Below are positions 9,176 through 46,428 of a stretch of DNA of 64,000 nt, piece after piece. The notes under the pieces are model-generated. The model had not been told where the DNA came from. It saw nothing but the letters and a program-made list of their open reading frames with translations, and did no database searches. Each line of letters starts with the position of its first letter. Position 1 is the stretch's first letter. The position numbers and the translations under genes are program-made. Origin of the DNA: Phoronis australis (Eukaryota > Animalia > Phoronida); NCBI GenBank assembly GCA_002633005.1, contig NMRA01000013.1:1612185-1676184 (forward strand). Reading direction: 5' to 3'.

Positions 9176-12100
9176 CCCCTTGCAGGGTCTTATTGAAATT
9201 TGGCAGGTGTTTTCCAGTACGAAGCTGACGACAGACGATGACGATTTTTAGACTGATCCTAGTACCGCTGTGCACCCTAGCGACAATTTTGTTTTTTATG
9301 TTTGTGTCTGTATCTTTGGAGCTCATTTATGGATTTTCATGAAATTTGGCCATTGGTTTTTATGCGCCCGCATATTTATATGTGGACGCATTATGCCGTC
9401 ATCTCCGTTTGGGCGGCGTCCGTCCGGCGTCCGCTGCTCTAACTCCAAAATCGTTTGACGTATGTTCTTGAAATTTTGCACGTGTTCCTTTTTTGGATGG
9501 GACGGCATGAGCGAACGTTCGGACGGATTCGACTACTGGTCTGCCCCCTAGTGGCAATTTTAGTTTTTTACGCTTATCTCTATATCTTCAAAGGTCTTCC
9601 GCGTATTTACATAAAATTTGGCATGTAGGCATCTATTAGTGAGATGACGCTATCCACCCGTTTTGGATAGATTAGACGTAATTTGCACCACCTAGTGGCC
9701 ATTTTGACTGTTTTCGAGTATGTTTTTAGTTGTCCACCCCTCTATCAACCAAACCGCTCTAAGGATGATTGTGGAAATTGGCATGTATGTTCTTACTATG
9801 AAGAGGACAGCTGATGATGATTTTCCGATAATTTCGACGACTGTGGTGCCTCCTAGTGGCAGTTTTGTTTTTTTTTTCGCCTATGGCTGTATCTCCTAAA
9901 CCGTCTACAGGATCTTTACTAAATGTAGTAAGTGCATTTATATGATGTTGACAAGGTACGATGACGACTTTCGGACGAATTTGATTCCTGGTGTGCCCCC
10001 TAGTGGCAATTTTACTTTTTTACGTTAACCTCTTTTTTCAAAGGTCCTCAACATATTTTCAAAAAAATTGGCGTACAGGCTTCTGTTAATGTGGTGACGC
10101 TATCTTTCCGTTTTCAGATGGATTCGACTTAGTTTGCGCCACCTAGTGGCGATTTTTACTGTTTTTGAGTGTTTTTTGACGTCCACCCCTCTATCAACCA
10201 AATTGCTTTCAGGATAATTGTGAAAATTGGCATGTATGTTTTTACTATGAAGTGGATGGCTAACGGTGATTTTCCAATGACTTCAGCTACTGTGGTGCCT
10301 CCTAGTGGCAGTTTCGTTTTTTTCGCGCCCATGGCTGTATCTCTTAAACCGTTTGCAGTATCTTTACTAATTTAATAAGTGTATTAATATGATGTTGACA
10401 AAGAACAACGGCGACTTTTGGATGGATGTGACTACTGGTGTGCCCCCTGGTTGCAATTTTTGATTTTACGTTTACCTCTGTATCTTCAAGGGTCCTCAAC
10501 GGATTTTCATAAAATTTTGAATACAGGCATCTGTTGGTGAAGTGACGCTATCCTCCCATTTTTGGATGGAATCGAGGTATTTTGCGCCACCTAGTGGTCA
10601 TTTTTGCTGTTTTCGAGTCTGTTTTTTGGCGTCCAGCCCTCTATCAACCAAATCATTCTAAGGATGTTTTTGAAAATTTGGCGTTTATGTTCTCTGTGTG
10701 AAGAGGATGGTTGACGATGACGGCTTTGACTACTGTTGCANCTTATCCCCTTGCAGGGTCTTATTGAAAATTGGCAGGTGTTTTCCAGTACGAAGCTGAC
10801 GACAGACGATGACGATTTTTAGACTGATCCTAGTACCGCTGTGCACCCTAGTGACTATTTTGTTTTTTATGTTTGTATCTGTATCTTTGGAGCTCATTTA
10901 TGGATTTTCATGAAATTTGGCCATTGGTTTTTATGCACCCACATATTTATATGTGGACGCATTATGCCGTCATCTCCGTTTGGGCGGCGTCCGTCCGGCG
11001 TCCGTCCAGCGTCCGCTGCTCTAATTCCAAAATCGTTTGACGTATGTTCTTGAAATTTTGCACGTGTTCCTTTTGTGGATGGGACGGCATGAGCGAACGT
11101 TCGGACGGATTCGACTACTGGTCTGCCCCCTAGTGGCAATTTTAGTTTTTTACGCTTACCTCTATATCTTCAAAGGTCTTCCGCGTATTTACATAAAATT
11201 TGGCATGTAGGCACATATTAGTGAGATGACGCTATCCACCCATTTTTGGATAGATTGAACGTAATTTGCACCACCTAATGGCCATTTTGACTGTTTTCGA
11301 GTATGTATTTAGTTGTCCAACCCTCTATCAACCAAACCACTCTAAGGATGATTGTGGAAATTGGCATGTATGCTCTTACTATGAAGAGGACAGCTGACGA
11401 TTTTCCGACGATTTCGATGACTGTGGTGCCTCCTAGTGGCAGTTTTTTTTTTTGCCTATGGCTGTATCTCCTAAACCGTCTCACTCTGCAGGATCTTTAC
11501 TAAATGTAGTAAGAGCATTTATATGATGTTGACAAAGGACGACGACGACTTTTGGACAAATGTGATTCCTGGTGTGCCTCCTAGTGGCAATTTTATTTTT
11601 TTACGTTAACCTCTGTATATTCAAAGGTCCTCAATGTATTTTCAAAAAAATTAGCGTACAGGCTTCTGTTAGTGTGGTGACGCTATCTTAACGTTTTCAG
11701 ATGGATTCGACTTAGTTTGCGCCACCTAGTGGCGATTTTTACCGTTTTCGAGTCTGTTTTTTGACGTCCACCCCTCTATCAACCAAATCTCTTTCAGGAT
11801 AATTGTGAAAATTGGCATGTATGTTTTTACTATGAAGTGGATGGCTGACGGTGATTTTCCGATGACTTCAGCTATTGTGGCGCCTCCTAGTGGCAGTTTC
11901 GTTTTTTTGCACCCATGTCTGTATCTCTTAAACCGTTTCCAGTATCTTTACTAATTTAATAAGTGTATTAATATGATGTTGACAAAGAACAACGGCGACT
12001 TTCGGATGGATGTGACTACTGGTGTGCCCCCTGGTTGCAATTTTTGATTTTACGTTTACCTCTGTATCTTCAAGGGTCCTCAACGGATTTTCATAAAATT

Positions 12101-12324
12101 TTGAATACAGGCATCTGTTGGTGAAGTGACGCTATCCTCCCATTTTTGGATGGAATCGAGGTATTTTGCGCCACCTAGTGGTCATTTTTGCTGTTTTCGA
12201 GTCTGTTTTTTGGCGTCCAGCCCTCTATCAACCAAATCATTCTAAGGATGTTTTTGAAAATTTGGCGTTTATGTTCTCTATGTGAAGAGGATGGTTGACG
12301 ATGACGGCTTTGACTACTGTTGCA
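9176..12324 (+). repeat. Near-identical 1.57-kb direct duplication (9176-10740 and 10747-12324) joined at an N
   Basis: Both copies start cccc(t)tgcagggtcttattgaaa and end gactactgttgca; n at 10741. Confidence 0.9.
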
Positions 12325-12710
12325 TCTCCAATGTTAGTTTTGTTTTGTTTTGTTTTGCGCCCATAGCTGTATCTCCTAAACCCACTGCTGGGTCTTTATT
12401 GAATTTAGTAACTGAAGCTAACAACAGACAATGACTACTTTCGTGTGGATCCAATGAACACTGTGCCCCCTAGTGGCAGTTTTCACTTTATTCTGTTTTC
12501 CTTTGTTTTTCTGAAGTTCCGTGACAAAATTTCTATGAAATTTGGTGAATAGCTTTCTGTTAAAGAAGCTATGACATGTTCCCTTTTTCGGGTGCGTTGT
12601 ATGTTTTTGTGCCGTCTAGTGGCCATTTTTATGGCCAATAAACAACCCTAAAAGCACACCGTTTGTGATGCATTCGTGGGCGCATTTCAACGCTCTGCGT
12701 TGCTCTTGTT
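9357..12710 (+). mobile_element. Younger HINE/DINE-like element with central tandem array (~450-bp trimer of ~150-bp subunits); length inflated by a 1.57-kb duplication
   Basis: Starts in a T-run. 5' subterminal IR atgcgcccgcatat / atatgtggacgcat, then cgtccgtcc repeats. 3' subterminal IR gtgggcgcat (12676-12685), hairpin caacgc-tct-gcgttg and terminal ctcttgtt. No TSD. Confidence 0.85.
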
Positions 12711-13864
12711 TGTTAAGGAGACAATGATGCCATCGGGTATTACTTATGGAAGGATTTGATGAATTTTACACCACCTTGTGGCCATTTATTTTTCTATGCG
12801 CCGAAATTGTCAAAGAACCATTTTGAAAATTTATAGATGTGTTCCTGTTGAGAAGGCCCCCACTGATATTGATTTTTGGGCAGGTTCATCTACTTTGTTG
12901 CTTCCTACTGCTGATTTTGTTTGTTTTTACATTTTTGGCCAAATCTCCTTGATCCTTTGAAGGAACTTCGTGAAGTTTGAAAGTTGCATTTCTATGTGGC
13001 CGATGACAAATGGTAACGAGTTTCGATTTGATCCGAATTCCACTGTGCCCCTCAGTAGCAAAATACTTTTTTATGATTGTTTACCTCTATATCTTCAGAG
13101 CTCATTAATGTATTTTCATGAAATTCAGCAAAATAGGTTTCTATTAAGGAGATGACCATTTTCGGACTGATTTGACATTTCCTGTGCCACCTGGTGGCCA
13201 TTTAAAAATTTGTGCGTACATTTTTGGCATCAGTCTATCTGCTAAAGCACTCAAAGGATCATGAAAATTGTCGGTTGTTTTCCTGATGTAGAGACTACAG
13301 CTGATGTTGACTGTCAGCTGGTTTCTACAACTCTAGCACCCCCTAGGGGCATTTTTGCTTTTTTGCATCTATGGTACTGTTGTATCTCCTTAACCCTTTG
13401 TAAAATCTTTGTGAAATTTGGCAGATGTGCTCCTATAGAGATGGCAACAGATGACTATGAGTTTCAGACCAATCAGACTTAAGCTGTGCCCCCTAGTGTC
13501 AGTTTCAGGATTTATGGTTGCTTTTGTACCTTTAAAGTTGCTTGGCCATGTTCTCGAAATCTGGCAAATAGTTGTCTTAGACAATCGTACTTTCCCATTT
13601 TGGACAGATCTGACATATTTTGTACCATCTAATCGCCATTTTTATGGCACCAAAACACCTGTAAAGCACACCAATCACATCCCTGTTATGGGCACATTTA
13701 ACACTCCCTTGTTGCTCTTGTATGATTTTCTTGTTCAGTCCGTTTGTTGAGTGGAAATGCCTTTTTAATAAAATTGGAATTCCTAGTTGCTCTAATGCTC
13801 GGAGCTGTTTAATTTCTGTTATCTTTACTTAGAGTGCCTTTTCACCCGTTTCTGTTTCTTACAG

Positions 13865-13988
13865 GGCATTGGTGCAGCTCACGAAGAGAGTGCGTTGGAA
13901 GGTCAGACGGAGGTGCCTCCTGTAGAGGAGAAAGTGAACTTGCATTTTGTGGCTTTTGTCGAATCCAATGGTAGCCTCTATGAATTAG
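13865..13988 (+). CDS. UCHL3: UCH exon 6 (124 nt), crossover loop and catalytic His: [41 protein letters not shown]
   Basis: EGQTE and LHF..LYEL motifs; tttcttacag acceptor; G|GTAACG donor. The loop resembles UCHL3 more than UCHL1. Confidence 0.96.
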
Positions 13989-14327
13989 GTAACGCATTTG
14001 ACCTTAATTCATATATGAAGTGACTTCATTATCCCTGGGTGGTAACTTGTAAAAGGAATCTTGATTTGACAGGTAGTAGGTCGCCAGACAGAAAAAATAA
14101 TTTTTTCATGGAAAATTGCAGAAGCAATCATTATTCCAGGTCTATTTTTGCTTTCCATACCAATAACAATAATTCATTACTTCTTGTCTACAAAAGTTAA
14201 GTATCAAAAATATCATGTTCCAATTTGTCATAGGGTGATTACATAACAGATTTAACTTTACCAAATGTTTTTATGACATCTACCCAGTCATTACGGATAA
14301 AGATTTTATAATAGATTAAAATTTTGT

Positions 14328-14551
14328 TAGGCTTGGAATTTTCCTCTTTTAAGAGGATTTCCTATTTTTTGGTTTTGGTTTTGATTTCTTTTTATTTGAT
14401 TTTTAGAATTCTCTTTTTTCGTCTCTTTTTTGTTATAATTTTGACTTTGTTCAGGCAAAAACGTTAATTTCTAGCACACAAGCTTATTTGTGGAACGACA
14501 CATCACCTAGAAAATTGTCCTCTTTTTTGTCATTGGTCATTCCAAGCCCTG
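14328..14551. mobile_element. Degenerate short copy of the CAGGGCTTGGAAT-TIR DNA element, in UCH intron 6
   Basis: Left end aggcttggaattttcc; right 29 nt ttttttgtcattggtcattccaagccctg identical to 34071-34099. Confidence 0.75.
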
Positions 14552-15651
14552 AATTACTTTATTTTTTATGAGAAATTTGACAAATTTTGTTTTCACTACA
14601 TCACTAATATTGTTTGCCAAATGGGTGAAGAACTTCCGTACCTGACATTGACATATGTGGTGTTCATTAGCTTACTCCATGGATGTCAAATTTGGTTTAG
14701 AAAATCGTGTGCTTAAGGTCCCACAGAATTAGAAAACGCAAGTGAATGTGGAGACCGACATCAGCAAATGATGAATAAATGGAATGTAGAGACAAAGACT
14801 TGTAGTTTTGGTTACAAGAACTAGTGCCAGTGTGTTACGAAATCTACCAAAACAAAATTGCCATCATAGTAAACACTCAGATTCTTACCTAATGCCTACG
14901 GTGGTGGATTCACTAGGCTTGCGAATTTGGCAAAATGCTTCATTTTTGATTGTGCCTGTGTGTTGCATTCCGAAGACATGAGCTCACTACAGCACAGGTC
15001 ACAAATTTTTTGAAAACTGATCTGCTAATTGTAACAGGACGGTTATAGGCCCACAGCAGTGCCACCTTTCATGCAGACTCTTGAATATTCCCTATGATCG
15101 ACACGTACTGTTGTGCCACATCCAGAGTTTTTCACTTTCATCAGTCTTAATGAAATGTTGCCTAGTTATTACATGTGGAAGGATTTAAAAAATACGTCTC
15201 GGCATATCGTGGTGAAAGCTACATGAATTGTGATCCAGTGCCAACTGCAGCGGTGACCATGCTAACAACATCTAGCAGACTGTTGCCAAACAGTGAGAAA
15301 AAACTTGGTGGCCTATTGCAGCAGCTGTGACATGCCATTGAATGGTGTTTGGGTACCTGCCCGTTGCAAGTCCTAGTTGGGTGGCCATCAGGCCTGAGAT
15401 TTGAACAGTTAGTTTACTTCTACCCAAATCACTTTCATGATGGGTTAGGTATGAGTTGAGGCCCTATAAAGTTTGAAGCATTTTCTCGAATTGTTTTGAT
15501 GCACTTGTTGCTAATGGCAGTAGCGTCCTGGCATGGTAAGGAATATTATGAGACGGATTTTTGAGAGCAAGTGGCCTGATTTTAGTTTTGTTTGTCTGCC
15601 AGCTGAACAGGATGAAGTGATGTTCTATTACTTAATTACACTTCGTTTTAG

Positions 15652-15710
15652 ATGGCCGCAAGTCTGGTCCCACCTGCCATGGAAAATCCAGCCCAGATAC
15701 CCTGCTGGAG
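15652..15710 (+). CDS. UCHL3: UCH exon 7 (59 nt) with catalytic Asp: DGRKSGPTCHGKSSPDTLLE
   Basis: Completes ELDGR; ttttag acceptor; GAG|GTAACT donor. Confidence 0.95.
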
Positions 15711-16760
15711 GTAACTGTTGTAATCTTTTGTAGTTTTTCCGAAGCTACAATAATATCTCATCAATTTTACACATTCAAAAACAATTGCTAAAACTGATCA
15801 TATTTAATTTTTCAACGGCTTCAAAATGTGTTTGAATGACTCCAATAACACTGTGTGATAGTATAAAACCTTAAAAATGAGTGAGCATTTATCATAAACA
15901 CTCGTATTTGTTGAACAAAATTAAAAAATAAAATTTCAGTTTTCAGCCTTTTCGTGTCTTATTGTGATGAGATTGTACTGTTAAACAGAACAAGTTACTG
16001 TGCTTGATCAATTCATGTTTTTGAGTTGCAGAGCCCCCTTTTGAGTAGAATTGGAACTAAATTGAAAGCTCACTGGTACTGAACAGGAACTGTGCCACAA
16101 ACTGAGATACACTTCTAAGAAGTACATTTTTGCAGGGTTACTTGTTATTACTGGTTATGTAGGACAAAAGCATGAAAGTTTTGAGACATCCAGTTGAGTT
16201 AACAAAATACAGAAAAATTGAGTCAAATACTGAAATTTGCTAACTTAAGAAACGGACGCAATGTCGCTAACTCAAGTGAGCAAATTGTAGTAGTTTTCTG
16301 TATTTTGATTATGTAAGACCTTATCAACATGTCAGACTCTGTGAATTCACACAAATATCTAGACCAAATTTTGTTGGTATGAAAGTTCAGAAACGCTGTA
16401 CAGTTTTCTAAATTATCATTTAATTTTGGTTGTATAGAACTTTTGATTTTTTCATAAAAATTAAAGCTGTATTTTTGATAGCCCCTTTTGCAAAAGTGGC
16501 TCAGTTTAAAACAGTTTTTCGCGGCGTTTTGGAAAACAGTACAAAAAGCATTTGACTCTGACCAGCCACTTCTGAGATATGGTGTTCCAAAGTCATCCAA
16601 ATTTGGACATTTTTCTAGGGTCCTGCATAACCTCAAAGCAGCTTTGAAATGATGGTAACGTACAGGTGTGCGAATTGCTGAACCCATCACCAAAGCAATC
16701 ATGCTGATAGTGTACACAAGTTGAGTGGAATTTCTGATGCAGGTGTTCCATTTCTTTCAG

Positions 16761-16844
16761 GACACCGTGGCGGTCGCGCGGCTATTTATGAAGCGTGACC
16801 CCACCGAGGTCAACTTCTCTCTCGTCGCTCTCGCTATGGCATGA
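16761..16844 (+). CDS. UCHL3: UCH exon 8, terminal: DTVAVARLFMKRDPTEVNFSLVALAMA*; total CDS 675 nt, 224 aa
   Basis: C-terminal FM-x-RDP-x-E-x-x-FS-x-x-AL motif; tttctttcag acceptor; TGA at 16842-16844. Confidence 0.95.
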   Translation, partial: DTVAVARLFMKRDPTEVNFSLVALAMA

Positions 16845-17646
16845 AGAACCAAAGGATTGGCAGGCATATGTTTTCCCTTATCACAATATCTTCTTATTGT
16901 TCTGTAAGCGTCCCGGACACGTGTTTCTGTCACGAAGTTGTGTTTTATTGCCTGCTATGATCGTTCTGTTATGACAAGTCATCAGGCTTATTGAACTTTC
17001 AGTCGCGATTTCTGGTAGGATTGTGTGTGTTTGAGGCCAGCAGTCTCATTTCTATACGTATAACTCAACCCACGAGTGCTTTCATCGGCTATAGGTGTCA
17101 CCAGCTGCAACAGAAGAGTTCGAGCACGCCTAGAAGGTTACTTTTACCAAGATACGTTTTACCAAAGATAAGTGCTACACGGCAGTTTTTAGGCCGCTAT
17201 AGACGCGTCTTATGTAAAAAAGCTGACTTTGATTTTATGCCACTTACGGTTATAAACTTGGGTCTCAACTTGATTGATAGTTTAATTAGGAGATGTTTCT
17301 GGTCTGGGAGAAGCGGTGATGATTCATTATTGATCGAGACCTGAGTCGGCAACTTGACTCTGGGAACAGGCTGATCATTTTATGTGCGAGTCATGACCTC
17401 GAACAGTAACGATCTGCCAGTTTTTTCCGAACCCTTAAATCTGAGCACAGAGCTAGCTAAGACCGGCTCTGTTACCCTAAGTGTGCTCAATCAAAAGTAA
17501 TTTTTTGACAAAAAGCAAATTTATAGCACCTGTAATGGCTAGTGTCATAATTAAGTAAGTAATATATAGTGTGCATATGTTTCAATATTTATACAAACTC
17601 CAGTAAAACATCTGGAAGATGGCCAAGCTATTGTAGGTGAACTCTT

Positions 17647-17652
17647 AATAAA
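17647..17652 (+). terminator. Candidate polyadenylation signal for the UCH gene
   Basis: First AATAAA I noticed after the stop codon (~800 nt downstream). Motif only; common by chance in AT-rich DNA. Confidence 0.25.
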
Positions 17653-17761
17653 CTGAAACCAGGAGGCAAAGTAATGACTAAATAATTGAAAAAAGAACAA
17701 ATGCTCTACAAGTCTCTTTGAAAGTGTCATTCCACTATATTTTGTATCGGAAACTTGGTCG

Positions 17762-18047
17762 TAGAAAATAAACCTGAAACTAAATAAGGCGATCCAGATC
17801 CTCCCAAGGATACTATTGTTTCACGAAATGTAGAATTTAAATAGGTAAATAAAACAACAAGAATGGATCAACTGAAATTTTCGGATGTGATAACGTCCTT
17901 TGTCAACAGAAACAGAAATAAAGTAAAATCAAACACTATATGACAATTGACATTGATTTTACTTTATTTCTGTTTCTGTTGACAAAGGACGTTATTACAT
18001 CCGATAATTTCAGTTCATCCATTCTTGTTTTTTATTTACCTATTTAT
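17762..18047. mobile_element. Insertion containing a ~95-bp-arm inverted repeat, flanked by an 11-bp direct repeat
   Basis: Arms 17838-17932 and 17953-18046 with few mismatches and a 20-nt loop; aaacttggtcg at 17751-17761 and 18048-18058. Confidence 0.8.
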
Positions 18048-18710
18048 AAACTTGGTCGCTAATGACAAAAAGCATCCTTTTCTTTTTACTTTAATAATAT
18101 GTTCCACTATGATGCTGGTGCCCTATGTTTTAGACATCTCATAATTGGTGACTGACAAGTGGCACCCTCTTTTGGCCGTGGTGAATACTGATGCCACTGG
18201 CAACAAGCTGTAGGGGAAAATAATGAGAGCTAATAATGTGTTGACAGGAAAAAAGTAATATTAACTGAACACTTTTAATCACCTGCATGACAATATCTGT
18301 GTTGACACAGAAATTCACGGTTTCCAACTCCAAAGGCTGACGGCGTTGATGAAGATTCTGAAATGATTTTTTATTCTTCATCCTTTTAAATATGTTTTGA
18401 AATGAATTATCTGACTGTGTATTAGTGCTGCCGTTTTGTGCAAAATTATTTGCAAAATCATGCTGAAGTTGATTATTATGAGTTTTTGATGTTTGATCAC
18501 TTGTTTGCATTACGTGTGTAATGTCTGTATCTTTGCTCATTAAATGTTTGTCATAAAGCAAGTTGTCTTGTTGTTCATAGTCTTGTAATAGCTCGCTTGC
18601 AACTGTCTACATGCTCGCGCATTTTGATATCAAAATGCTCAGTTGCGGGTAATCTTTATGCAGTGACAAAACTAATTTTGTTGGCCATTTTAGGTTTTGA
18701 CAGTCTTAGG

Positions 18711-18957
18711 GGACAGTGAGGCCTAGTGGGTTGAGTGTCTTCCTTCTGTTCATGAGGTCATAGGTTGTAATCCCACTGGACCCCACTACTTTGGTTAGGT
18801 CTCCAGTTCCTCAGCTAATTTGTGTATATGTCTATATGTGTTATATGTCTCTTTTTATTGAATGAAAAACCGCTTCAGGTGTTTGGTGCAATGGGCCCAG
18901 TTGAGTGGCCTGTGCACATCTGATGCAACAGGTGTCAGACCACCTGCACTATTTTTA
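18711..18957 (+). mobile_element. tRNA-derived SINE, copy 1
   Basis: A-box-like ggcctagtgg and B-box-like ggttgtaatccc; body and tail (gtgcaatggg..., agaccacctgca) align with the reverse complement of 41155-41387. Confidence 0.7.
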
Positions 18958-19545
18958 GGGTTTGACTAAATGAAGGTATTCCTTGTCCGTTCATAATTGT
19001 CAAAATGGATTGCCGGATTTTGATAAACCTTGGTGTAGAGGTTTAAGATATAGCTGGAATGTGCCGGCACTTGGTGATTTTCAGCTTGGATGGTCTGCTG
19101 ATGAAATAGCCATTTAACTTTTTTACTGCCAACTTCATGGGAAACGCACTTCCCAAAGCCAGTTGAATTTTGAGGCATTTTGGAAGGCTTTGGTACATAA
19201 CTAAAAAGGCTACGAAATTGCTGTTATTTGCTAACTGAAACTTGAAAATTCTACATCTTTCTGAATCCGGTACACCGTTGGACAGTTGAAACTCTGCTTG
19301 TGAGTTCGAATCGTGAACAGTTTACGATATGACATCGTTGACAGTATATGTAGCTGCCTCAGCTTTCATCGTAGCAGTCAGACAAATCAGCATCAACAAA
19401 GCGTTCTAAATTTTGAATAAAAAATGTTCTTTTTTAACATTTTTTCTGCCAAACAAAGGCCTAATATTAAAGTACAGCTAAAATAGACAAACCGAAGGCA
19501 GGTGCTTAAGTCGACAAAAGGCAATATTGGCACTGATAGTCTTAA

Positions 19546-19973
19546 AGTGGTCTATTCGTGCAGTACGAAAGTAATAAATACCTCAAGCAGTATACCGTTT
19601 GTGAGTGCTTTGTGTTGTGTGCATGCCATGGGTTAAAGATAAGATCTTGTAGGCAACTAGAAAAATGTCCAAATTTGGCTGATCGTATTGCTATGAAACT
19701 CTCCCTGTATAATTTATGCACTGTTCTCCAAAACGCCATCAGGATTTACGTACGGGTATTCATATACTATTAGGATTTGTTTATGAAATATTCCACTTGA
19801 TATTAGGGCTTATTAATGATAGGACTTCGATGTGAATGTCTGGCAGACAACAGTGAGATTTGGCAATTTGTGATAAAATCACAAATAACAAGAGTTTTTT
19901 GGTCAAAGCTAACATCTTCATCTCGTAATAATCCCTAAAATGCGTTTTTGACCGTAAAAACGTTAATGTCCCC
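19546..19973. mobile_element. Possible Kolobok-like non-autonomous DNA element
   Basis: TTAA on both flanks with weak terminal inverted similarity (agtggtctatt / aatgtcccc). Internal segment aaaaatgtccaaatttgg recurs inverted near 16598-16615. Confidence 0.4.
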
Positions 19974-20000
19974 TTAAGAAAATTCTACTTCAATATCAGC

Positions 20001-20108
20001 TTTGTGTTTAGTGTACCGTTGTCTCCCTTTGTGTTTAGTGTACAGTTGTCTCCCTTTGTGTTTATTGTACAGTTGTCTCCCTTTGTGTTTAGTGTACAGT
20101 TGTGTCCC
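20001..20108. repeat. Minisatellite, 4 x 27 bp (tttgtgtttagtgtacagttgtctccc)
   Basis: Directly visible tandem copies. Confidence 0.95.
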
Positions 20109-23100
20109 TCCAACTCTTCCTGAGACGCTTTTCTTTCTCTGGCACAATTTTGACCTGTGTAGCATTGTAATAAGTTAAAAATTCTCCAGTTTGGGATGTT
20201 CTCTAAACTGGAATCTGAGCTGAAAATGTATATTTCCTGATTCTGAAATTAGGGACATGGGCTATTTTTGCAGGTATCAAATCTCGAATTGTAGACCCAT
20301 GCATATTTTTTGAATAGCAGGCTTTGAAAATAAATTTGAAGTAAAGGAACGCTGATCTTTTACGTGTCAGTAAGAACTGCTGCCATGTCCTGGAATTTCG
20401 GGATGCCCAATATTGCATATCTGGTACAAGCTTTGACCTTGAGCGAAAACATTTTGCTTTTCCTCTTTCTCAAACTGGAGGATTTTTACTTTGAGCCTTT
20501 TGAAATCAATATGGTAATTTTTCTTTCTCCTTATTCAAAGTGTTTTTTTGATTGTGCTGTACCTGTTTAACTCTGCAGTAATTTCACAAGTGTTGGCTTC
20601 TTGTCGATTTTTGCTGCATGTAGGCTGAATAGAAACTTTTGTCAAATCAATTTAAAAACACCTTTTCTCAATTAAATTGCTCGTAGCTTTAATATCATCC
20701 AGCATCTTGAACTAGAAGCTGGCAACATTTATTTTGCCTGGTAGTTCTAACAGAAAACAGGTGTTCCTGATGTTATTAAACGCTGAATCATCTGCTTAAG
20801 GCAATTTGTTTTGGAGCAACAGGCGAAATTGAATTACTTGAAAAACGCACTTGCTGAAGTCCAAACCAATTGAACAAAAACAATGAACAAATTTTTAAAA
20901 GAAATTATGGAGTTTCTAGAATTATTGTGGTGGCTGTGACTGACTTAAATTTAAACCATATTTTCAATTAAGTGTTTTTGCCATGAGTTTATATTGGAAT
21001 GTTGACATCAACAAACACGCAAAGGTTGGAAAATGTGTTAAGGCTTACAACCAATTGAGTTAATTAAAAGCTATATAGTGAATTCTTGACTTGAGCACTT
21101 TTTAGCAACTTAATTAACACTTGTTGCAAGGTGGTGTGTTATTGAACTTCTTGACATGTGATGGCAATATTCTGAAAACTGTTACTTATTATTTTTTTCA
21201 AAACTAATAAGTAATAATAATGCAATTTACAAGGGACATTTTTATGTGGTAATATATAATGGAATGCTTTTAAATGATGTTTTCAAACAATATTTTCATA
21301 GCGTGTGCAACATTAGGGCCCACAGTCATTATCCTTGCATTATCATTTAAAAGATGAAAGCAACCATTTTTGAGGCTAGCTTTACTGAAATACTGAAAAT
21401 ACAGATCACTGTTTATCAATCAGTCTTCTCCACTACCTGTTTTGACTAACTGTAGTAACAAGTTTGAAATTCTCTTCAGCAAGCCTGACTTCCTTGCATA
21501 TTTCTGCCTGTCTACAGCCTGTTTGATCAAATTTTTTATCCAGACCTTCTGAGAATGAGTTTGGTATGTTAACACAGACTGTTGTGTGAGACCCTAGATT
21601 CAAATTCGGCTAATTTCAATATATTGCATCTCAGAATTGTCTGATCAGATTTACGTGAAACTTTCAGAAGTTATGCTTGATGCATTGTGTTCCATAATGT
21701 TAGAAATTGTTTTTAAAATGTCTTGCTTTTGCATGACGCAGCATCAAAAATAGGACATTGCGTTTTTGTAAAAAATCTCTAAAGTTGCATAAATTGAAAA
21801 TGAAATGATAATTTTGAGAAGTGTAACACCGTTTTTGAGATTTCATCTTAAACATTATTATATAGTCAAAAGAAATTTGATGAGTTTATTCAGATGCCAT
21901 TGTTTTGCTGCAACTGCTCCTTTATCGTTGATTAATCTAAAAAATATGATGCCATGATCCGACTGAGGTAATTGTATACCTTAGTGAAATGCTGGTTTTT
22001 CAAAAATGCAATGTTCACATGCTATCCGTAATATTTCTTTAAACACGTCATTTATGCGCCATTTATAGTGGCTTGAGACGAATTGTAATGATTTCAAACC
22101 TGATCAATCTTTACTGGCTGTTTGCAGACCTTTTGATCTTCGTTTTTAGCAGTTTTGAACATTAATTTCTTTCGTGCATTGGTCGGTTAATACATACGTG
22201 CATACTTATTTTATCTTTTGCTGAGGGAATCAAGTCACGAATTTTTGATTTTCTTTACGCACAACAGGGATTGGCCATCAAAAATGAAGATTGAAGACAT
22301 TGTTTTTAAAGAGACTTTGATGGCTTATATCTCCTTTGTTTGAGAATAAATAAAGTCTTAGACATGGTTCTCTGTGTATTGACAATATAAATATATCTAT
22401 TCAATTACAAATTCTTATCTGCATTTTTTAGAAATGATGATGTTGATATCAAAACGTGACAACAAACAACGGTCAGTTGATTATTACTGAGATGTTTGCA
22501 TGATGTCTTAGTGCATGAATTTTTATTCTTACATAAATTGTCGCAAGCTCAAAAGATTTCTCAGTAATCTACAAAAATATTTACTTTTTAGGTAGAAAAT
22601 GAACGGTTGAAATATTGTTTGATGAAGCGTGAAAGGACTTCATGAAGATTGACAGTTACCTTAATGGCAGGTTGGCTTATAATCAAAAATTCAAATTATG
22701 CAGGATTTCTTTTAGAAAATACACTTGCTGAATTAATTTCTGCGGTTTTGTTGATATTTATCCAAAGTAGACAAAGTTTCGATAATATTATATATAACCT
22801 TGAATGCATTTTTTGTCCTTTTTCAGTGTGTATAAAATCAAACTCTTATTCTCTTAAGACATAAGCCTGGGTATCCTTTTTATTGCCGACCATTTCCCAT
22901 CCTCAGTTAAGATATTTTCTAAGGTCGTTTAACCGAATCATCTATTGTAAGCCTTGTTCTTCTATTTAAATCATTAGTATTGTTATTCAGGCATGGCCTT
23001 AATATCTGCTTGGATGTCCAGCGATGCGGTTCATGGTCGTTGATTGAGGCTTATAGTAGGTCGTCTTCATATTTGCTGCCTTGCAGAAAATCGCATGTAA

Positions 23101-32318: not shown

Positions 32319-33591
32319 TAAAGAGTCTTTCAATTGACGAAATTCTGATCCTAGGCTGCATGACGAGTCAAGTTCAGAGGGATGAAACACAATTTCTTTC
32401 ATTCACGGACATTTTTGACGTCATGGATTCAAATAATTTTAATGCACCCACATATTTATGAGGACCCATTATGCCGTCATCTCCGTCCGTCCGTCCGGCG
32501 TCTGCTGCTCTATCTTAAAAACGCCTTGACATATGTTCATGAAATTTTGCACATGTGTTCCTTCTGTAGATGGAACGGCATGAGCAAACTTTTGAATGGA
32601 TCCTACAACTGGTGTGCCCCCTAGTGGCAATTTTAATTTTTTACGTTTACCTTTGTATCTTCAAAAATTCTGAATGGATTTTTGTAAAATTTGGTATATA
32701 GGCACCTATTAGTGAGTTGGCGCAGTCTTGCCGTTTTCGGATGGATTCAATGTACACTGCACTGTAGTTTGGGCCACCTAGTGGCCATTTTTACTGTTTT
32801 CGAGTCTGTTTTTTTGTATCCACCCCTCTATCAACCAAACCGCTCAAAGGATGATTGTGAAAATTGGCACGTATGTTTTTACTATGAAGTGGACGGCTGA
32901 CGATGAGTTTTTGATGATTTCGACTACTCAGTGGCACCTCCTTGTGGCATTTTGGGGGGGAGGGGCTATTGCTGTTTCTCCTAAACCGTTCGAAGGATCT
33001 TTACTAAATTTAGTAAGTGTATTTACATGATGTTGACAACAGACGATGACGACTTTCAGATGGATCTGACGACTGGTGTGCCACCTAGTGGCAATTTATT
33101 TTTTTTACGTTTACCCCTGTATGTTCAAAGGTCCTCAATTTATTTTCAGAAAATTTGGCATACAGGCATCTTTTAATGAGGTGACGCTATCTCTTCGTTT
33201 TCAGTTGGATTCAACCTAGTTTGCGCCACCTATTGGCCATTTTTTACTGTTTTCGAGTCTTTTTTTGGCTTCCACTCATCTATCAAGCCAACCGCTTTCA
33301 GGATAATTGTGAAAATTGGCATGTATGTTTTTACTTGGAAGTGGACAGTTGACGATGATTTTCCGACGAGTTCGACTACTGTGGCGCCTCCTAGTGGCAG
33401 TTTTTTTTGAGCTCATGGCTGTATCTCCTTGTAGGATCTTTACTTAATTTAGCAAGCGTATTTATATGATGTTGACAACGGACGGCGACGACTTTCGGAC
33501 GGATCTGACTTCTGGTGTGCCCCTTAGTGGCAATTTTAGTTTTTTTACGTTTACCAGTCTGTACCTTCAAAGGTCCTCAATAGATTTTCAT

Positions 33592-34099
33592 CAGGGCTTG
33601 GAATTTTCCGCGGAAACGCGGATTTCCGCTTTTTTCAAATGTGCTTTCCGCTTTTTTTATAATATTTCCGCGTAAAAAAATCAGATTTGATATAAAATTT
33701 CCGCGGCAAATTCCTTTCTTACCGCGGCGTTGCAGACGACGTTTACCTCGAAAAGCGGAAGTTGCTCTTTATGTTTTGGAGGAACGTAAATTGTCAACAT
33801 TGCTGGGGCATCTGGGACAGCATGGTGGGAGATTTTCAATGGCGTCTCGTGTTATTGTTAAGCGCGGCGACAAATACTACCGCTCTGCAGCCAAAAATGT
33901 GTGGGTTGGGAGTGGACGGGCGAGCTGAAAGGACGCAAGACGCATGCTACTGGTGGTGGTAACGTTTTTTTTTAGTCCTCCCGATTTTTGTCGGGGAAAG
34001 GTTCACACTGACCATTTCAAGGCTGGTTATCGGGCAAGATTTGGGCCGTGAAAGTTTCAAAGTTTCCGCGTTTTTTGTCATTGGTCATTCCAAGCCCTG
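33592..34099. mobile_element. Non-autonomous DNA transposon (508 bp) with perfect 13-bp TIR CAGGGCTTGGAAT and 6-bp TSD tttcat; hAT-like
   Basis: TIRs are exact. The host consensus gattttcataaaattttg is split with tttcat duplicated (33586-33591 and 34100-34105). Confidence 0.9.
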
Positions 34100-34529
34100 T
34101 TTCATAAAATTTTGAATATAAGCATCTATTGGTGAGATGACGCTATCATCCTGTTTTTTGATGGAATCTAGGTATTTTGCACCACCTTGTGGCCATTTTT
34201 GGTGTTTTGAAATCTTGTTTTTGGCGTCCACCCCTCAATCAATCAAATCATTCAAGGGATGGTTTTGAAAATTGGTGTATGTTTTCAGTGAAGAGGACCT
34301 TTGATGATGGTGACTGACTACTGTGGGGCCTCCTAATGGTAGTTTTGTTTTGTTTTTCGCCCATTGCTGTATATCCAAAACTCACTGCAGGATCTTTATC
34401 AAATTTAGTACGTGAATTTTAATGAAGATAACAGACGATGACTTTGAGGCGGATAGAACGGACACTATGCCCACAAGTGGCAATTTCATTTTGTTCCGTT
34501 TTCCTTTATTTCTCTGAAGTTCCTTGACA

Positions 34530-34807
34530 CATAACTCTTAATCGTCGTGAGAGACCGTCCGGAGTTGGTATATGCTGCAACTCAGGATGGTCTGGGATCT
34601 ACAGAAAACCACAGTTCATCTGTGAGTCTACACCAGTGTGATAAACGAGAGTAGTTCTACTTGCTGCGTCAGCTGCTGGTATGCTTATCTCTTTTATGAC
34701 ACACAGTGTGTGATTGGGCAAAGCGTTTTCAAAATATTGTGGATAAATCAGTGGACTGTGAGACCCCTGAGGTCCCTGTCAAATCCTCACGACAATTTTA
34801 CGTTATG
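34530..34807. mobile_element. 278-bp insertion with 22-bp imperfect TIRs inside HINE copy 3
   Basis: cataactcttaatcgtcgtgag versus the reverse complement of ctcacgacaattttacgttatg; absent at the homologous position (~12520) of the other copy. Confidence 0.75.
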
Positions 34808-35545
34808 AGATTTTTATGAAATATGGAATGTTCCCGTATTTGGATGGATTGCACATTTTTGCACCATCTAGTGGCCATTTCCATGATACAAATAAATAAC
34901 TCTAAAAGCACACCATTTGCGATGCACTTGTGGGTGCATTTCAATGCTCCACGTTGCTTTTGTTGAAAATGCTGGAAAATATCGCACTGAATATAATCCA
35001 TACAAGAATTCAGAACGGTGTCTACAAACTACTCCGTCTAGTGACAAGGCGAATAGCGTCATGTCGCCGTTACATGGAAAATGTTTTTTGGTACTGCGCG
35101 TAACGTCAGGTGACGTACTGTTTAGGGGTGATTGAAATTTTTACATATGTTGCCAGACTTTACAGGAGAGGCTGTGCTGATAGGTAAATTTGCCAATTTT
35201 AAAGAACACTAAAGAAAATGGCGATGTTTAAAATTTCATTTTTTCATCTTTTATGAAAGGAATATGCCTGGTAAACACCAAATTACGGCTTTCTGGACAG
35301 TGTTCAGGTTTTGTACAAGCTAACATCATACAATGTTTTGAAAACTGTCTGCCATTCACAACAATTACATTCCCTTGAATAATGAGAAAAGTGTAATGTT
35401 AGCGATTATTTTGATTGAAATTAGTGAGATTTTGCCTTAACAGTTTTGCAATTCTACTTGAACACTCTAAATAGCAGTACTTTACTACTGGTTTTATGGA
35501 AAAATTTCTCTTGCTCAGGTATCTGCAGTTCATACTCACTAGGTC

Positions 35546-35604
35546 TTTGTAATAAGTCACTTTGTAATAAGTCACTCTGTAATAAGTCAATTGTAATAAG
35601 TCAC
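35546..35604. repeat. Minisatellite, 4 x 15 bp (tttgtaataagtcac)
   Basis: Directly visible tandem copies. Confidence 0.95.
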
Positions 35605-37234
35605 TTTTCACTGTTTATTTTTAACACTTCCATGCACTTTTTAGTTATTGTTTGAGATTACTTTTTATTTTATAGTTTAAGATAAGTTAGTTTTATTTTA
35701 TTTTATCTGATATTTTAGCATTACTTTATATGATTAACTGTTCTATGATGTATTCTTGTATTTATTGCCAGTTTGTCTACTATTTCCTTATATATGATTC
35801 ACAATTTGTTCTCATAGACATAATAATAGGCATGTGTCGCTTGAAATGTTGTTCACGCCCTGCTTTGTAATAGGCACATGTTCCTTTTTGTATTGTAAGG
35901 CACTTGATTTTTATGACGTATAGTTTTATTGATTTGAGCGGCAATGGTGGTCACACTTTTGATTTATTGCCCCATGAATTGTAAACAATGGCAGTTTTGG
36001 TTTTCCCAGTGCAAGTTATATGCTGTCGAGATACAGAAATAATGGCGTTACTATGAACTCAATTCATTAGTCAAGTGATTAGTTGTAATGTCATTTAATT
36101 TAGGGTTTAATAATAACACAAAAGGGAAATGAACCAGGGAAATTATTTCAATGATTCAAAAGATTGCTACCAGATAAAGACAAAGATGTTAGAATGTGTA
36201 TCCCTTACAGTTGCTGTGAAGAATTAAGTTGGGCGTGCACCCAAAATTGTACATCTTTACATGTTTCAATTGGACCTTTGGTGCCATTTAATACAAATAC
36301 ATTCTTCAGGCAGTAAAATTCAGGATTCGGTGACATTTACAAAAATATTTGATAAACTCATTACTCCAATTACCTATCTGAAATTTGCAGATAAAGGTTT
36401 TCTGATAGATAAAAAATGGGCAAGTGTCTTGTGTAGCCTTGAAGTGTACTGTGGATAGCTGATTACAGTCTGGCTGGAGACTGTAGGACATAGAAATTTA
36501 GAAATAAACTCAATGCTTTAGAAAGTAAAAGTTAATGATACTGTTAAAGTAGTGTGTGTTACCATAAACAGGTGTTGAAACACATTTTTATGATTGTTGT
36601 GTTACTGAAAAAATGGATTCTGGAAAATAACAATGTTCACTGAGATTTAAGTATAGGTCATCTGATGTGACTAATATATGGCATATGTAAAGAATAATAA
36701 TTCTTACTTATAGATATCAATGCACTGGTTTGTAACAACACAATTATATTAGTGTTAAAAAGCCAAAACACTGATCCAGAAAAACGTTTACTTACACCAA
36801 TTAAAAAAATCAAGCAACTGGGAAATACAATTAAAGACATCAATGTGAACATGACACATTGAAGGGAAATTAAATCATTGTCAAAGGGATTTCAGTCATT
36901 AATTTAAATATTAATCTATGTAAGTTTCACATTTAGGTGACTGTATTGGAAAAACTAATTCTTTGGCCCCACTTTCGTTTGCACATTTATGTAGGAGCCT
37001 AGAAATATGTTGAAATTTGAGTGACTTTGTACCATCGTATCTCAGGAATGGCTGGTCGGATTCATATGCAATTTTTAGATGCTGTGCTTTATGCATTGTT
37101 CTTCAAAATGCGGTTATGTATTGATTTTAAAATGTACCACTTGTCCAATTGAGGGACTATTAAAATAAGATTTGTGATCCTCATGAAAAACTGAAGTTGC
37201 ATGAAATGAAAATGAATGGCTACGGGAACTGAGT

Positions 37235-37332
37235 TTTTGAGATCTCATCTTGAATATTTCTCATATTTTGAGATCTCATCTTGAATATTTCCCATATTTT
37301 GAGATCTTATCTTGAATATTTCTCATATTTTG
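37235..37332. repeat. 3 x 31-bp tandem (ttttgagatctcatcttgaatatttctcata) within an old interspersed repeat family
   Basis: Visible tandem. The unit and its upstream flank resemble single-copy segments at ~21785-21860 and ~58460-58535. Confidence 0.85.
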
Positions 37333-41387: not shown

Positions 41388-42028
41388 TTCTAAAGTATTG
41401 GTACCTACAGTTACAAAAGTTGTTACTACTTTGGCGAGAATAGCATGGAATTATGTGTGCCAGCCTTCACTGTGAATTTATGCTGGGACATTTCTAAACC
41501 AGACTGTCGAAGATTTGAAATGAGATTAGCTTATGTTATGAAAGATATTCTCGTAAATCTGGCTATTTTGCAAAAGAAGGGGTTAAAGACTTGTTATATT
41601 TAATAGTATGTATTACAAATGATAAAAATTATGCTGTTCTATTGAATAGTTCATTAATACATTTATTTGTCCATGGTTAATATTTTCACTTTGGTTGTTG
41701 CATTCTAGCAGGGAGGCTAAATTGGGATCATGTATTGCATTTGGAGCGTATTACAAGTATTGTCAGGAGTAATATTGCAGCTGTGTTGTGTGTCCTACTG
41801 TGTTAGACAGGAATTTATTTCCAATTCTCACCAATTTGAGACAAAAATAATTACATATCTTGGTGAAATGAAATTTTGCCAAGAATGCTGCTCTGTTACG
41901 TATTTTTGTACGCATGCTACAAGTTTTTCCAATCGATATGAAATTTACACACAGCATGATCTTGTGAAAAACTCGAAGTTTATTGTTTTTTGAGCGAAAT
42001 CAAATGCAAGATGTCGCTGTTACATCTA

Positions 42029-43466
42029 TTTTTATGTGCCCACATATTTATATGTGGACGCATTATGCCGTCATCTCCGTCCGTCCGTCTGGGCGGCGTG
42101 CTCTATCTCCAAAACTCTTTGACATACGTTCATGAAATTTGGCACATATGTTCCATTCAGGACGGCATGTGCGAACTTTCGGACGGATCCAACTACCGGT
42201 GTGCCCCCTAGTGGCAATTTTAATTTTTTTTCGCTTACCTTTGTATCTTCAAAAGTCCTGAACGGATTTTCATGAAATTTGGTATGTAGGCACCTATAAG
42301 TGAGATGACGCTATCCTTCCGTTTTCAGGTGGATTCGACATAGTTTGCGTCACCTAGTGGCCATTTTTAGTGTTTTCGAGTCTGTTTTTGTGCGTCCAAC
42401 CCTCTATCAACCAAACCGCTTAAAGGATGATTGTGAAAATTGGCATGTATATGCTTACTATGTAGAGGACGGTTGATGATGATTTTCCGACGATTTCGAC
42501 TACTGTGGCGCCTCCTAGTGGCAGTTTTTTTGTGCCTATGGCTGTATCTCCTAAACCTTTCACAGGAACTTTACGAAATTGTGTAAGTGTATTAACAATG
42601 GAAGATGACAACTTTTGGACGGATCCAACTACCGGTGTGCCCCCTAGTGGCAATTTTAGTTTTTTACGCTTACCTTTGTATCTTCAAAAGTCCTGAACGG
42701 ATTTTCATGAAATTTGTTATGTATGCACCTATTAGTGGGATGACGCTATCCTCCCGTTTTCAGATGGATTCGACATAGTTTGCGCCACCTAGTGGCCATT
42801 TTTACTGTTTTCGAGTCTGTATTTTTGGCGTCCACCCCTCTATTAACCAAACCGCTCAAAGGATGATTGTGAAAATTGGCATGTGTGTTCTTACTATGAA
42901 GAGGACGGTTGACGCTGAATTTCCTATGACTTTGATTACTGTGGCGCCTCCGATTGGCAGTTTTTTTTGCGCTCATGGCTTCATCTCCCAAACCATTGCA
43001 GGATCTTTACTAAATTTAGCAAGTGTATTTATGTGATGTTGACAACGGACGATGACGACTTTAGGATGATTCTGACTTCCGGTATGCCTCTAGTGGCAAT
43101 TTTAGTATTTTACATTGACCTCTGTATTTTCATAGGTCTTCAGGTGTATACTTTGTGTTACTTCGTGACTATGAAGGAAAAGTTCCAAGTTGAAATTTGT
43201 TTCTGGCATTCTAATGCTGTGCTAATCTCGTATCTGTGGTGCTTTAAGCAACTGATGTATAGGATGTGCTTGTATTATGAAGATCACTCACATTTTGCCC
43301 CTAGCCTATTGAGGAAACAATGACCATGCCTTTCCATTTTGCAAAGTACAACATACTACATATATGCCCTCTACTGGCCACTTTATGGTACCAATAAACA
43401 ACCCTAGAAGGATACCGTATACGGTGCAATTGTGAGCGCATTTCAACGCTCTGCGTTGCTCTTGTT
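42029..43466 (+). mobile_element. HINE/DINE-like element, copy 4
   Basis: tttttatgtgcccacatatttatatgtggacgcatt 5' stem-loop; subunit array; 3' gtgagcgcatttcaacgctctgcgttgctcttgtt. Confidence 0.88.
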
Positions 43467-45423
43467 CAAAATTTTGCTTCTCTCTACAGTCCTTTGAGGG
43501 ATTCTTCTGAAATGTGGTATAGAGTAGATTTTGTCAAGTGCTTTCTGTTATGTGTCATCTGTGTCTCGCTATGACTTACCTTTTTCAAATTATCCAAGAT
43601 TTTCTGGTGTCTGTTACTTTGTTTAACCATTTTTCACTTTATGGTTGATGACCCCTATTCTAGGCTTCATTTTTTTGTACAATCGACATAATGTTGGAAA
43701 CCTCGTGCTTTTGGTTGAAATCGAATGCAGAATGGCCACTTTTTATTTTTCTATTTAACTAGCCGTAGCTCAGGCGTCCATTGATCTTTCTTAAATTTGG
43801 TATCTGAATAGATCTGGTCAAGTGCTATCTTAATCCTAGTGTGTTATCTGTTTCTGTCTTGTACTTAATACTAATCTTTAGTTATTTGAGATTTTCTGCC
43901 GACTGTTCTGTTGCAGCTTTCATGTCAATTAAACTACGGTAAAGTAGGACACAATTCTTGTCGCATTGAAAGATAAAATTTACGCAAACTGTGTGTCTTT
44001 ACCTTAATGAGCCATAATTGCTTTTAATTGAAATTGGATGTAAGGTGGTACTAATTAAGATCCATTTTTAAAATTTTTCTTTTGAGATCTACTCATGGGT
44101 GCTCACCTTTATGGATTTTTCGCTGCACTTTTTTCATTCACCTGAGCTACCGCACTAAGGCTCCTGGGAATTTCTGAAAATATGCCCACCTAAAATAGAG
44201 GCCCGGGGATGTATGTTTTGGAAATTTTATCCAAAAGTATACTCATGGGTGTATTTTCGGTAAGTGTTAGCATGTTTTAAAAATTTGATAGATTGTTTTA
44301 AAACCCATAAGTTTTGATGTAAAATTTTGTTTATTTGAATAATACGTAATGTTTTGGGAATCTCAATTTCATTCAAGTGACTTTTCATTTAACACTAAGT
44401 TATTTGGACACTTTGTTGGTAACATGCCATATTAGTACTGCATGATGAACAGTGTGTCTGCTGAATGCAAATACATAAATATGGTGTGGACAAGAGATGT
44501 ACCAGATCACACAATAAAAAGGACGCGTTTGCTTAAAAAAGCATGGCTTCGACCACGTTATGCTCACGAGGTTTTGAAGTACCTTATTCATTGCTGTTCA
44601 TATATCAACTCCTACAAACATAAATCAGTCAACTTATTTCATTGAGTTAAAATGATTTTTATCAGTACAAACCAACCATCGTTTTAAGGACTATCTACTT
44701 TTGCAGAAAAGTAGTGCTCACTTTTAGGTACTTTGAGAAAGTCTCGAGTGAATAATGAACTACGGTATAATCATTTGCTTTGAAACTGCATATCAAATTG
44801 TTTGGCAGTTTCCGAAAATATGTTCGGACATGTTTTCGGTTTCATATTCATACGTTTCTCTACACAACTCCTGATTGGACGCCCATATTTCCTTTGTTCT
44901 GTTCAACGTGGTCTCTCATTCAGCCACCTACCTCGTCATCTACAAGACCTACGTTCGTTCTCTTCATTTTTTCCCCACCCCCCATCCCGGGTGTCGGTTC
45001 CACTTTCTCTTTGCTCGTATACATTTCCTGTTAGGTTTTTTTCAAGTTTTGTTTTCATGTTCTGTACTTTTCCTTTAAGCCCTTCAGGCAGTTTTTTTTT
45101 TGTTTTGTTCCCTCTTGCAGGGCTATTCATTGTACACGCCTGTGGGCGTTTTTTGCATGCCCATCTTGCAGAGTCTTAGTTAGTTTTATCTATTACGTCA
45201 TAATAAATGACAATATTCTCAATCCTCCTCTTGTTTTACTCTGCAACATAGCTCGTGGCGTACCCCGGGCAAAATAGATTACGATAAATAATATTTTTGA
45301 AAGACTGTTTTCCAAATATCCAGTCATGGGCTTATTTTTGGAAATTCCTGGCATGTTTCTTAATCTTTTTTGTCACATTTGATTCCACTGTGTGTCACTC
45401 TGTAGAGCAACTTCATCGTTCTC

Positions 45424-46428
45424 TTTTTATACGCCCACATATTTATATGTGGTCGCATATTGTCATCATCTTAATGTCTGGGCATGTGAGCATCTGCCAC
45501 CTGCTGTATCTCCAACCCCCTCACAAGATCTTGAGGAGATTTGGCAGATGTATTTTTATGAAGCTGACGACGGATAATAACGAATTTCGGACCTCTTCGA
45601 CTACCACTGTGCCCCCTTGTGGCACTTTTAGTTTTTTACGCTTACCTCTGTAGAGGTCCTCAACGTATTTTTATAAAATTTGGCAGTTTGGCATCTATTA
45701 TTGAGATGATGTCATCTCTCCGTTTTCGGACGTATTTGAGGTTCTTTGTACCACCTATTGGCCGTTTTTACTGTTTTACTGCTAAAAATTTAGCAAGTGT
45801 ATTTATATGAACTTGACAACAAACTACGACGACTTTCGGATGGACTGAACTACCACGTGTGTCCCCCTGTGTCAATTTTATTTTTTTTAACAGTCTGTAT
45901 CTTCAAAGGTCCTCAACAGATTTTCATAAAATTTGTCAGATAGGCATCTATTAGTGAGTTGATGCTATCCTTTGGTTTTCGGTTTGATTTGTGGTATTTT
46001 GCGCCACCTATTGGCCATTGTTACTGTTTTTGAGTCTTGTTCTTTGGTGTCTGCCTCTCTGTCAACCAAACCACTCTAAGGATGGTTGTGGAAATTGGCA
46101 TGTATGTTCCTAATGTGAAGAGGAAGTCTGATTATGATTTTCCGACGGCTTCATCTACCATGGCGCCTCCTTGTGGCAGTTTTGTTTTTTTGCGCCTATT
46201 TTTAGTGGCAATTTCATTTTTTCGTTTTTCTCGGATTCTCAAAAGTTTCTTGACAAATTTTTATGAAATTTGGTAAATAGCTTTGATGACACATACCAGT
46301 TTTGGAATGGATTCGACATATTTTGCGCACTCTAGTGGCCATATTTATGTTCCAAATGAACACCCTAGAAGCACTCGGTTTGTGGGGCATTCGTGGGCGC
46401 ATTTCAGTGCTCCTCGTTGCTCTTGTTT
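45424..46428 (+). mobile_element. HINE/DINE-like element, copy 5 (more diverged)
   Basis: tttttatacgcccacatatttatatgtggtcgcat 5' end; 3' gtgggcgcatttcagtgctcctcgttgctcttgttt. Confidence 0.85.

Follow-up and report, generated by a model that had tools for sequence, protein, structure and literature searches.

The described elements closest to those analyzed here are HINE/DINE-1 (PMC4067079) and Cg_HINE of the oyster Crassostrea gigas (PMC7492417), which are reported to be non-coding, to insert into T-rich sequence without duplication, and to comprise a 5′ subterminal inverted repeat (subTIR) with an inverted repeat, a GTCY-type microsatellite, central tandem units of 140–180 bp, and a 3′ subTIR with a palindrome. 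Our analysis of a 64-kb stretch of the genome of the phoronid Phoronis australis (assembly GCA_002633005.1, contig NMRA01000013.1, forward-strand positions 1,612,185 to 1,676,184; hereafter, the window) reveals five elements, E0, E1, E3, E4, and E5, that share this organization and are HINE-type, non-autonomous Helentrons. In contrast to Cg_HINE, the units of the elements in the window form an A-B-C higher-order repeat and carry one CTCF-consensus motif per unit; the oyster arrays lack the CTCF core, and the main text of PMC7492417 makes no mention of CTCF.

Rolling-circle elements that disperse motifs of host chromatin or transcription factors have been reported before: Helitrons spread HSF-1 elements in Caenorhabditis elegans (PMC8896005, citing Garrigues 2019), and the ISX Helitron carries a dosage-compensation motif in Drosophila miranda (PMC6598467). 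Those two cases come with binding data and host co-option, whereas the elements of the window carry CTCF candidate sites recognized by sequence, with a constraint that apparently acts on the element lineage. Mobile elements that carry and multiply CTCF motifs are likewise reported in mammals, namely the B2 SINE, MER20, and HERV (PMC7786948). The mammalian cases concern vertebrates with loop-anchoring CTCF, whereas here nucleosome-spaced arrays occur in an invertebrate, Helentron-type element. Mammalian CTCF sites borne by transposable elements (TEs) are mostly single. In having insulator-protein sites clustered or in tandem, the elements of the window agree with DXZ4, a macrosatellite said to have such sites in tandem at one locus, not dispersed, and reportedly backed by functional data, and with gypsy, a long-terminal-repeat retrotransposon with clustered sites for another insulator protein, Su(Hw), for which functional data exist.

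Each ingredient is already known: tandem-unit HINEs, TE-borne CTCF sites, Helitron-spread motifs, and Helitron satellites proposed as insulators. The combination itself did not turn up: among the papers listed by literature searches, which took in few subscription papers, none described HINEs with CTCF arrays. A study by Shi et al. (2023), reportedly on Helitron-marked supersized sperm loops in Xenopus tropicalis, could lower the novelty if those Helitrons carry CTCF motifs. The role of CTCF in spiralians is described as largely unknown (PMC10658182).

The CTCF-consensus motif and its conservation between unit types

We scanned the window with CCASYAGRKGGCRS, the human CTCF core consensus as printed in PMC6746451. 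The scan revealed 14 exact matches and 36 matches with at most one mismatch (i.e., 22 with one), every one on the minus strand, against a chance expectation for exact matches of 0.01 on average and 1 at most (100 dinucleotide shuffles). The matches correspond to one motif per tandem unit of about 150 bp, with a spacing of mostly 143–162 bp. Types A and B fit the consensus at 14/14 positions and type C at 13/14, in agreement with the first-pass annotation of this DNA, and the 15-mers that it had quoted as ending at 9555, 9699, 9860, 10007, 10150, and 10309 are correctly placed. Its count of roughly 45 co-oriented sites holds in part: at up to two mismatches there are 45 matches on the minus strand, but 6 of these lie outside repeat units, about 9 are counted twice through a duplicated block, and 2 further matches lie on the plus strand.

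To count units by their flanks, we used a flank-only profile built from 41 motif-bearing units, which identified 58 plus-strand units, 35 of them with at most one mismatch at the projected motif place. Subtraction of 11 duplicated-block hits and 5 truncated or spurious hits and addition of 1 old unit yields 43 non-redundant units, which differ from the consensus at 0 positions in 11 units, 1 in 17, 2 in 4, 3 in 8, and 4 in 3, so that 28/43 are within one mismatch. The units sort into types F, A, B, C, T1, T2, and P.

With units excised at a constant distance from the motif, comparison of the type consensuses reveals that the motif is constrained between unit types in a CTCF-like pattern. In particular, identity between type consensuses is 0.85–0.89 in the motif and 0.55–0.59 elsewhere; among the F, A, B, and C consensuses, 2/14 motif columns differ (positions 9 and 13), as compared to 72/108 other columns (p=0.0002), and the chance of any 14-base window being as invariant as the motif is 0.013. 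Invariant G/C columns make up 9/10 of those in the motif and 12/43 of those elsewhere. When position 8, which varies in the terminal type, is added to positions 9 and 13, 3 of the 4 type-level substitutions are among the 6/42 that the consensus permits (p=0.007); judged by position alone, the confinement of variation to degenerate positions has p=0.055. The first-pass annotation had called for a comparison of motif with flank and had described the motif as the best-preserved part even in the old copy. The comparison bears it out between types, and in the old units motif identity does exceed identity elsewhere (0.59 vs 0.46), but another block equals it there (0.59), and only 2/8 old-element units have at most one mismatch.

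Other candidate causes of the repeated motif were considered and rejected. YY1 as a common cause was discarded because AAAATGG, which we take to be the YY1 core, is confined to types B and T2, and the CENP-B box and the Pol III A and B boxes, compared by eye through their consensuses, fit poorly. A hairpin accounts for type B only, as had been noted from the start, and was rejected as a general explanation.

The fate of the motif in inserted copies

To follow the motif after insertion, we compared variants among the 25 units of types A, B, and C, all of them in the window and each compared inside its type. Variants common to more than one copy are underrepresented in the motif: 4 fall in its 42 columns and 85 in the 324 others (p=0.02). 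Private variants occur in 19/349 motif positions and 173/2660 positions elsewhere (p=0.56), a ratio of 0.84 with an interval of 0.53–1.33 and low power. CpG loss amounts to 6/18 in the motif and 39/125 elsewhere, and differences between the two copies of the duplicated block number 4/126 in motifs and 51/1430 outside. CpG transitions occur at double the non-CpG rate (50/287 vs 81/999), an excess that indicates germline methylation. Motif loss in inserted copies thus appears to proceed at the background rate, and the data fit selection in the replicating lineage followed by drift after insertion, with which a moderate host constraint is also compatible.

On balance, we favor the reading that a high-copy HINE keeps candidate CTCF motifs for its own copying while its inserted copies drift. 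An autonomous Helentron would supply RepHel and mobilize the elements in trans; host CTCF would bind the array in germline donor copies; the bound CTCF would keep the array accessible or unsilenced at nucleosome spacing; and lineages that retain the motif would leave more copies. As a side effect, the host would acquire clustered candidate CTCF sites, a few of which may be co-opted. The family is abundant, with 13,156–21,045 contigs per DNA run matching a 641-bp piece at ≥80% identity (four runs of one sample), figures that are counts of contigs and not copy numbers. At position 42350, where the motif is broken in the E4 copy, 94–97% of read-contig depth carries the consensus base, and among 40 of 91 variant rows no family polymorphism falls in the 56 motif bases, which is suggestive only. 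Should these sites prove to be bound, a single rolling-circle family would rank among the chief suppliers of CTCF sites in the genome, sites maintained by the element and not by the host, and whether CTCF acts as a host factor in Helentron mobility becomes testable with a defined sequence. Even if they are unbound, conclusions drawn from motif scans about the enrichment or orientation of CTCF sites in invertebrate genomes can be driven by one repeat family.

The first-pass annotation had proposed that the inserted arrays might serve as directional insulator cassettes, which corresponds to a reading in which the host retains them as insulators or boundaries. Mammals are known to have CTCF anchors that derive from TEs (PMC7786948), CTCF motifs are reported to be enriched at domain borders in squid and amphioxus, and the interval for private mutations leaves room for moderate constraint. 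Neither private mutation nor CpG loss is detectably reduced in the motifs, however, the duplicated block and the old-element units likewise fail to show retention, and two of the elements lie within an intron. The directional part of the proposal is weak, since head-to-tail tandem duplication forces co-orientation inside one element and since all elements fall on one strand with a chance probability of 0.06–0.125. Loop anchoring is also called into question by a preprint (10.64898/2026.10.19.760054) in which loops in human cells reportedly were not restored by CTCF from Drosophila or lancelet, and CTCF motifs in the annelid Dimorphilus are reported to be mostly single and at promoters. We therefore consider retention by the host decidedly improbable.

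Passive maintenance, in which one CTCF site captured by the ancestral unit was amplified and then kept by gene conversion between units or by DNA shape with no role for binding, is in our view quite unlikely. Tandem duplication alone accounts for the number and the orientation of the sites; TE copies are known to undergo non-allelic conversion (PMC6598467), and Helitron satellites have been proposed as mechanical insulators (bioRxiv 10.64898/2026.08.08.743475). Conversion homogenizes a continuous tract, yet fixed differences remain at positions 9 and 13; because these differences persist inside the tract, simple gene conversion is unlikely. Private mutations are not detectably rarer in the motif, which is therefore no cold spot. 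The elements have no 10-bp AA/TT periodicity (the peak is at 21 bp), and a mechanical explanation based on such periodicity was rejected.

Motif arrays in other repeats

In the oyster HINE arrays of supplement 2 of PMC7492417 (about 3.35 M characters, the first 400 characters of each cell), we counted 65 (11+54) core heptamers, as compared to about 206 expected by chance. Because the oyster arrays fall below chance in core heptamers, the CTCF motif is not a general HINE requirement.

A search for a two-motif pattern with a spacing of 142–172 bp, run without a scrambled-motif control, returned 66 metagenome loci, 9 GTDB loci, and 1 viral locus. None of the 66 metagenome loci (0/66) is similar to the HINE family of the window. 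HINE ends do occur in four of them (L013, L050, L057, and L063), where they stand beside the motif arrays and not around them, so that those arrays are not callable as HINE-borne. Clustering of the metagenome loci gave 43 representatives for scoring, 26 with low GC and 17 with high GC. In the 26 low-GC families, the free positions lean toward CTCF letters, with G/T at position 9 in 20/26, C/G at position 14 in 19/26, and A/G at position 13 in 15/26; the 17 high-GC representatives have no such lean, and the contrast between low and high GC is non-significant (p=0.057, 0.21).

One unrelated family in the metagenome contigs is a 146-bp tandem repeat with a two-unit higher-order structure, whose units each contain a perfect CTCF-type motif. 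It comprises 11 loci (L001, L003, L015, L041, L046, L047, L049, L054, L055, L063, and L065), of which 10 were used, with 25/35 units in four types. Its CTCF-type 14-mer is the best-conserved window between types (1.00 vs 0.68), a comparison subject to ascertainment bias because the family was found by the motif. Tests within families gave no extra conservation of the motif in the L001 family (0.86 vs 0.84) or in L048 (0.93 vs 0.90). A CTCF-type motif is also present in each unit of other AT-rich tandem repeats with units of 38–158 bp, namely L029 (1826–2503), L016, L043, L044/L051, L048 (402–1389), L039 (773–1244), and L002/L014; in L029, 18 CTCF-type sites are spaced 38 bp apart.

It is possible, if doubtful, that HINEs and unrelated families of about 150 bp in other animals repeatedly evolved nucleosome-spaced CTCF arrays as a platform for a host factor and, at thousands of copies, supply a large share of the CTCF motifs of a genome. 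Were this so, CTCF would have an element-serving role in invertebrates, and such arrays would be a raw source of clustered sites predating loop anchoring of the vertebrate type.

Several points weigh against the reading that the HINE of the window keeps its motifs for its own copying through CTCF. We infer, from sequence, that CTCF binds the array; how CTCF would aid transposition is conjecture; and the presence of a CTCF gene in the host is presumed from its clade, PMC10658182 reporting CTCF orthologues from molluscs, annelids, and rotifers but none from flatworms. Oyster HINEs proliferate although they lack the motif, so elements of this kind do not, in general, depend on CTCF. The 22 open frames of at least 100 aa in the window include no match to a transposase or helicase family (0/22), and no autonomous partner was found among them. 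Type C has a non-consensus A at position 9. The contrast between private and shared variants is itself non-significant (p=0.16; the inclusion of fixed differences is needed to reach p=0.023), and the interval of the private-variant ratio still permits nearly 50% constraint in inserted copies. Finally, the best-conserved 14-base window is displaced by 6–7 bases from the motif toward an adjacent A-tract outside the CTCF core, and each unit contains two further conserved blocks (0.72–0.77).

The displaced window and the further blocks would also be expected if another protein, either the RepHel of the family or a different host zinc-finger factor, binds the motif and the resemblance to CTCF arose by chance. 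Lineage-level selection would be seen at a transposase site as well, and the restriction to degenerate positions reaches only p=0.055 by position alone. We nevertheless consider binding by another protein unlikely. Specifically, the motif fits a long, independent consensus at 14/14 positions and changes to permitted letters (p=0.007); oyster HINE units lack it; recognition signals of Helentrons are thought, according to published accounts, to be the termini; and the low-GC metagenome families lean toward CTCF letters at their free positions, clearly at two of them and just 15/26 at position 13.

Element anatomy and the surrounding locus

The first-pass annotation had described the five elements as HINE-like, and the anatomy of their ends, microsatellites, and tandem units confirms that they are real and agrees with the definition in PMC4067079 and PMC7492417, which includes subTIRs of 11–15 bp at both ends. 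Four of the five elements have subTIR pairs of 9–13 bp with one mismatch, slightly under the length in the definition; E4 has no pair with at most one mismatch, only a pair with two mismatches recognized by eye. The 5′ subTIR and inverted repeat form predicted hairpins of −8.3, −6.8, and −4.2 kcal/mol in the three of five elements that were folded. The 3′ palindrome, between subTIR and end, has a perfect 6-bp stem in E1 and E4 and is decayed in E0, E3, and E5. A GTCC-type microsatellite and central tandem units of 143–162 bp are present, as in HINEs, and every element has a T-run at its 5′ end; HINE parts are eroded to differing degrees in E0, E4, and E5. A search of Rfam gave no match in the window.

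E0 (9074..13721, plus strand) is an older HINE with a 5′ subTIR and inverted repeat and unit P (motif 9270); it lies within an intron of a UCHL3-like gene and is split by E1, and its remainder comprises seven decayed units (12768–13622) and a 3′ subTIR (13689–13697). E1 (9357..12710, plus strand) is a younger HINE nested in the T-run of an E0 unit, and its flanks continue an old B-like E0 unit with no target-site duplication, at this one site. The 5′ end of E1 (9357..9432, plus strand) comprises a T-run, a subTIR (9362–9371) that pairs with an inverted repeat to form the hairpin of −8.3 kcal/mol, and then a GTCC/CGTC microsatellite; its 3′ end (12676..12710, plus strand) comprises a subTIR (12676–12685), a palindrome (12688–12702), and a T end. 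The unit order is F-B-C-A-B-C-A-B-(C)...T1-T2. Eight CTCF-consensus 14-mers lie on the minus strand between 9541 and 10597 (starts 9541, 9685, 9846, 9993, 10136, 10295, 10440, and 10584), and two further E1 motifs, also on the minus strand, are at 12463 and 12609.

Between these two groups lies the duplicated block (10747..12324, plus strand), a second copy of 9176–10740 whose motifs (10841–12168) are not independent. A single N at 10741 separates the copies, which differ at 55 of 1556 aligned bases (96.5% identity); the 1.57-kb direct duplication spans host-element junctions. The duplication at 10741 probably represents uncollapsed haplotypes, an artefact of assembly, or a local duplication, and not transposition.

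E3 (32436..34963, plus strand) is a HINE with 11 scored units, with motifs at 32614, 32771, 32931, 33078, 33223, 33384, 33517, 34179, 34326, 34467, and 34861. One of its B units is interrupted by a non-coding DNA transposon of 508 bp (33592..34099, strand unassigned) with a 13-bp terminal inverted repeat and a 6-bp target duplication; it may be hAT-like, 6-bp duplications being known for some hAT groups. E4 (42028..43466, plus strand) has eight scored units, with motifs at 42201, 42347, 42508, 42637, 42782, 42944, 43083, and 43364, and E5 (45424..46428, plus strand) is a deleted HINE with six scored units, with motifs at 45609, 45748, 45859, 46001, 46163, and 46325.

The UCHL3-like host gene whose intron contains E0 and E1 extends over approximately 2787..16830 on the plus strand (PF01088, E 1.5e-12), with exons near 2790, 6200–6337, 13860–13990, 15640, and 16780. 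Head-to-head with it, on the minus strand, an open frame at 1821..2468 contains a TBC1D1/4-like PTB exon, whose best matches are nemertean proteins (45–53% identity), followed by fish proteins at 36–39% (12 matches), as would fit a host that is probably a spiralian. The adjacency of TBC1D1/4 and UCHL3 (1821–16830) recalls the human TBC1D4-UCHL3 and TBC1D1-UCHL1 neighborhoods and would represent ancient microsynteny. A lone CTCF-like motif (2747–2760, minus strand, two mismatches) stands outside the repeats in the promoter region of the head-to-head TBC1D1/UCHL3 pair, some 40 bp upstream of where UCHL3 probably starts, and resembles the promoter-type sites reported for an annelid.

Old repeat fragments at 21628–21856 and 36987–37270 have a similar A-tract style and lack the CTCF motif. 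An unclassified interspersed repeat of about 400 bp is present in three copies (46649–47066, 48685–49120, and 56263–56562), about 69% identical, one of which is inverted.

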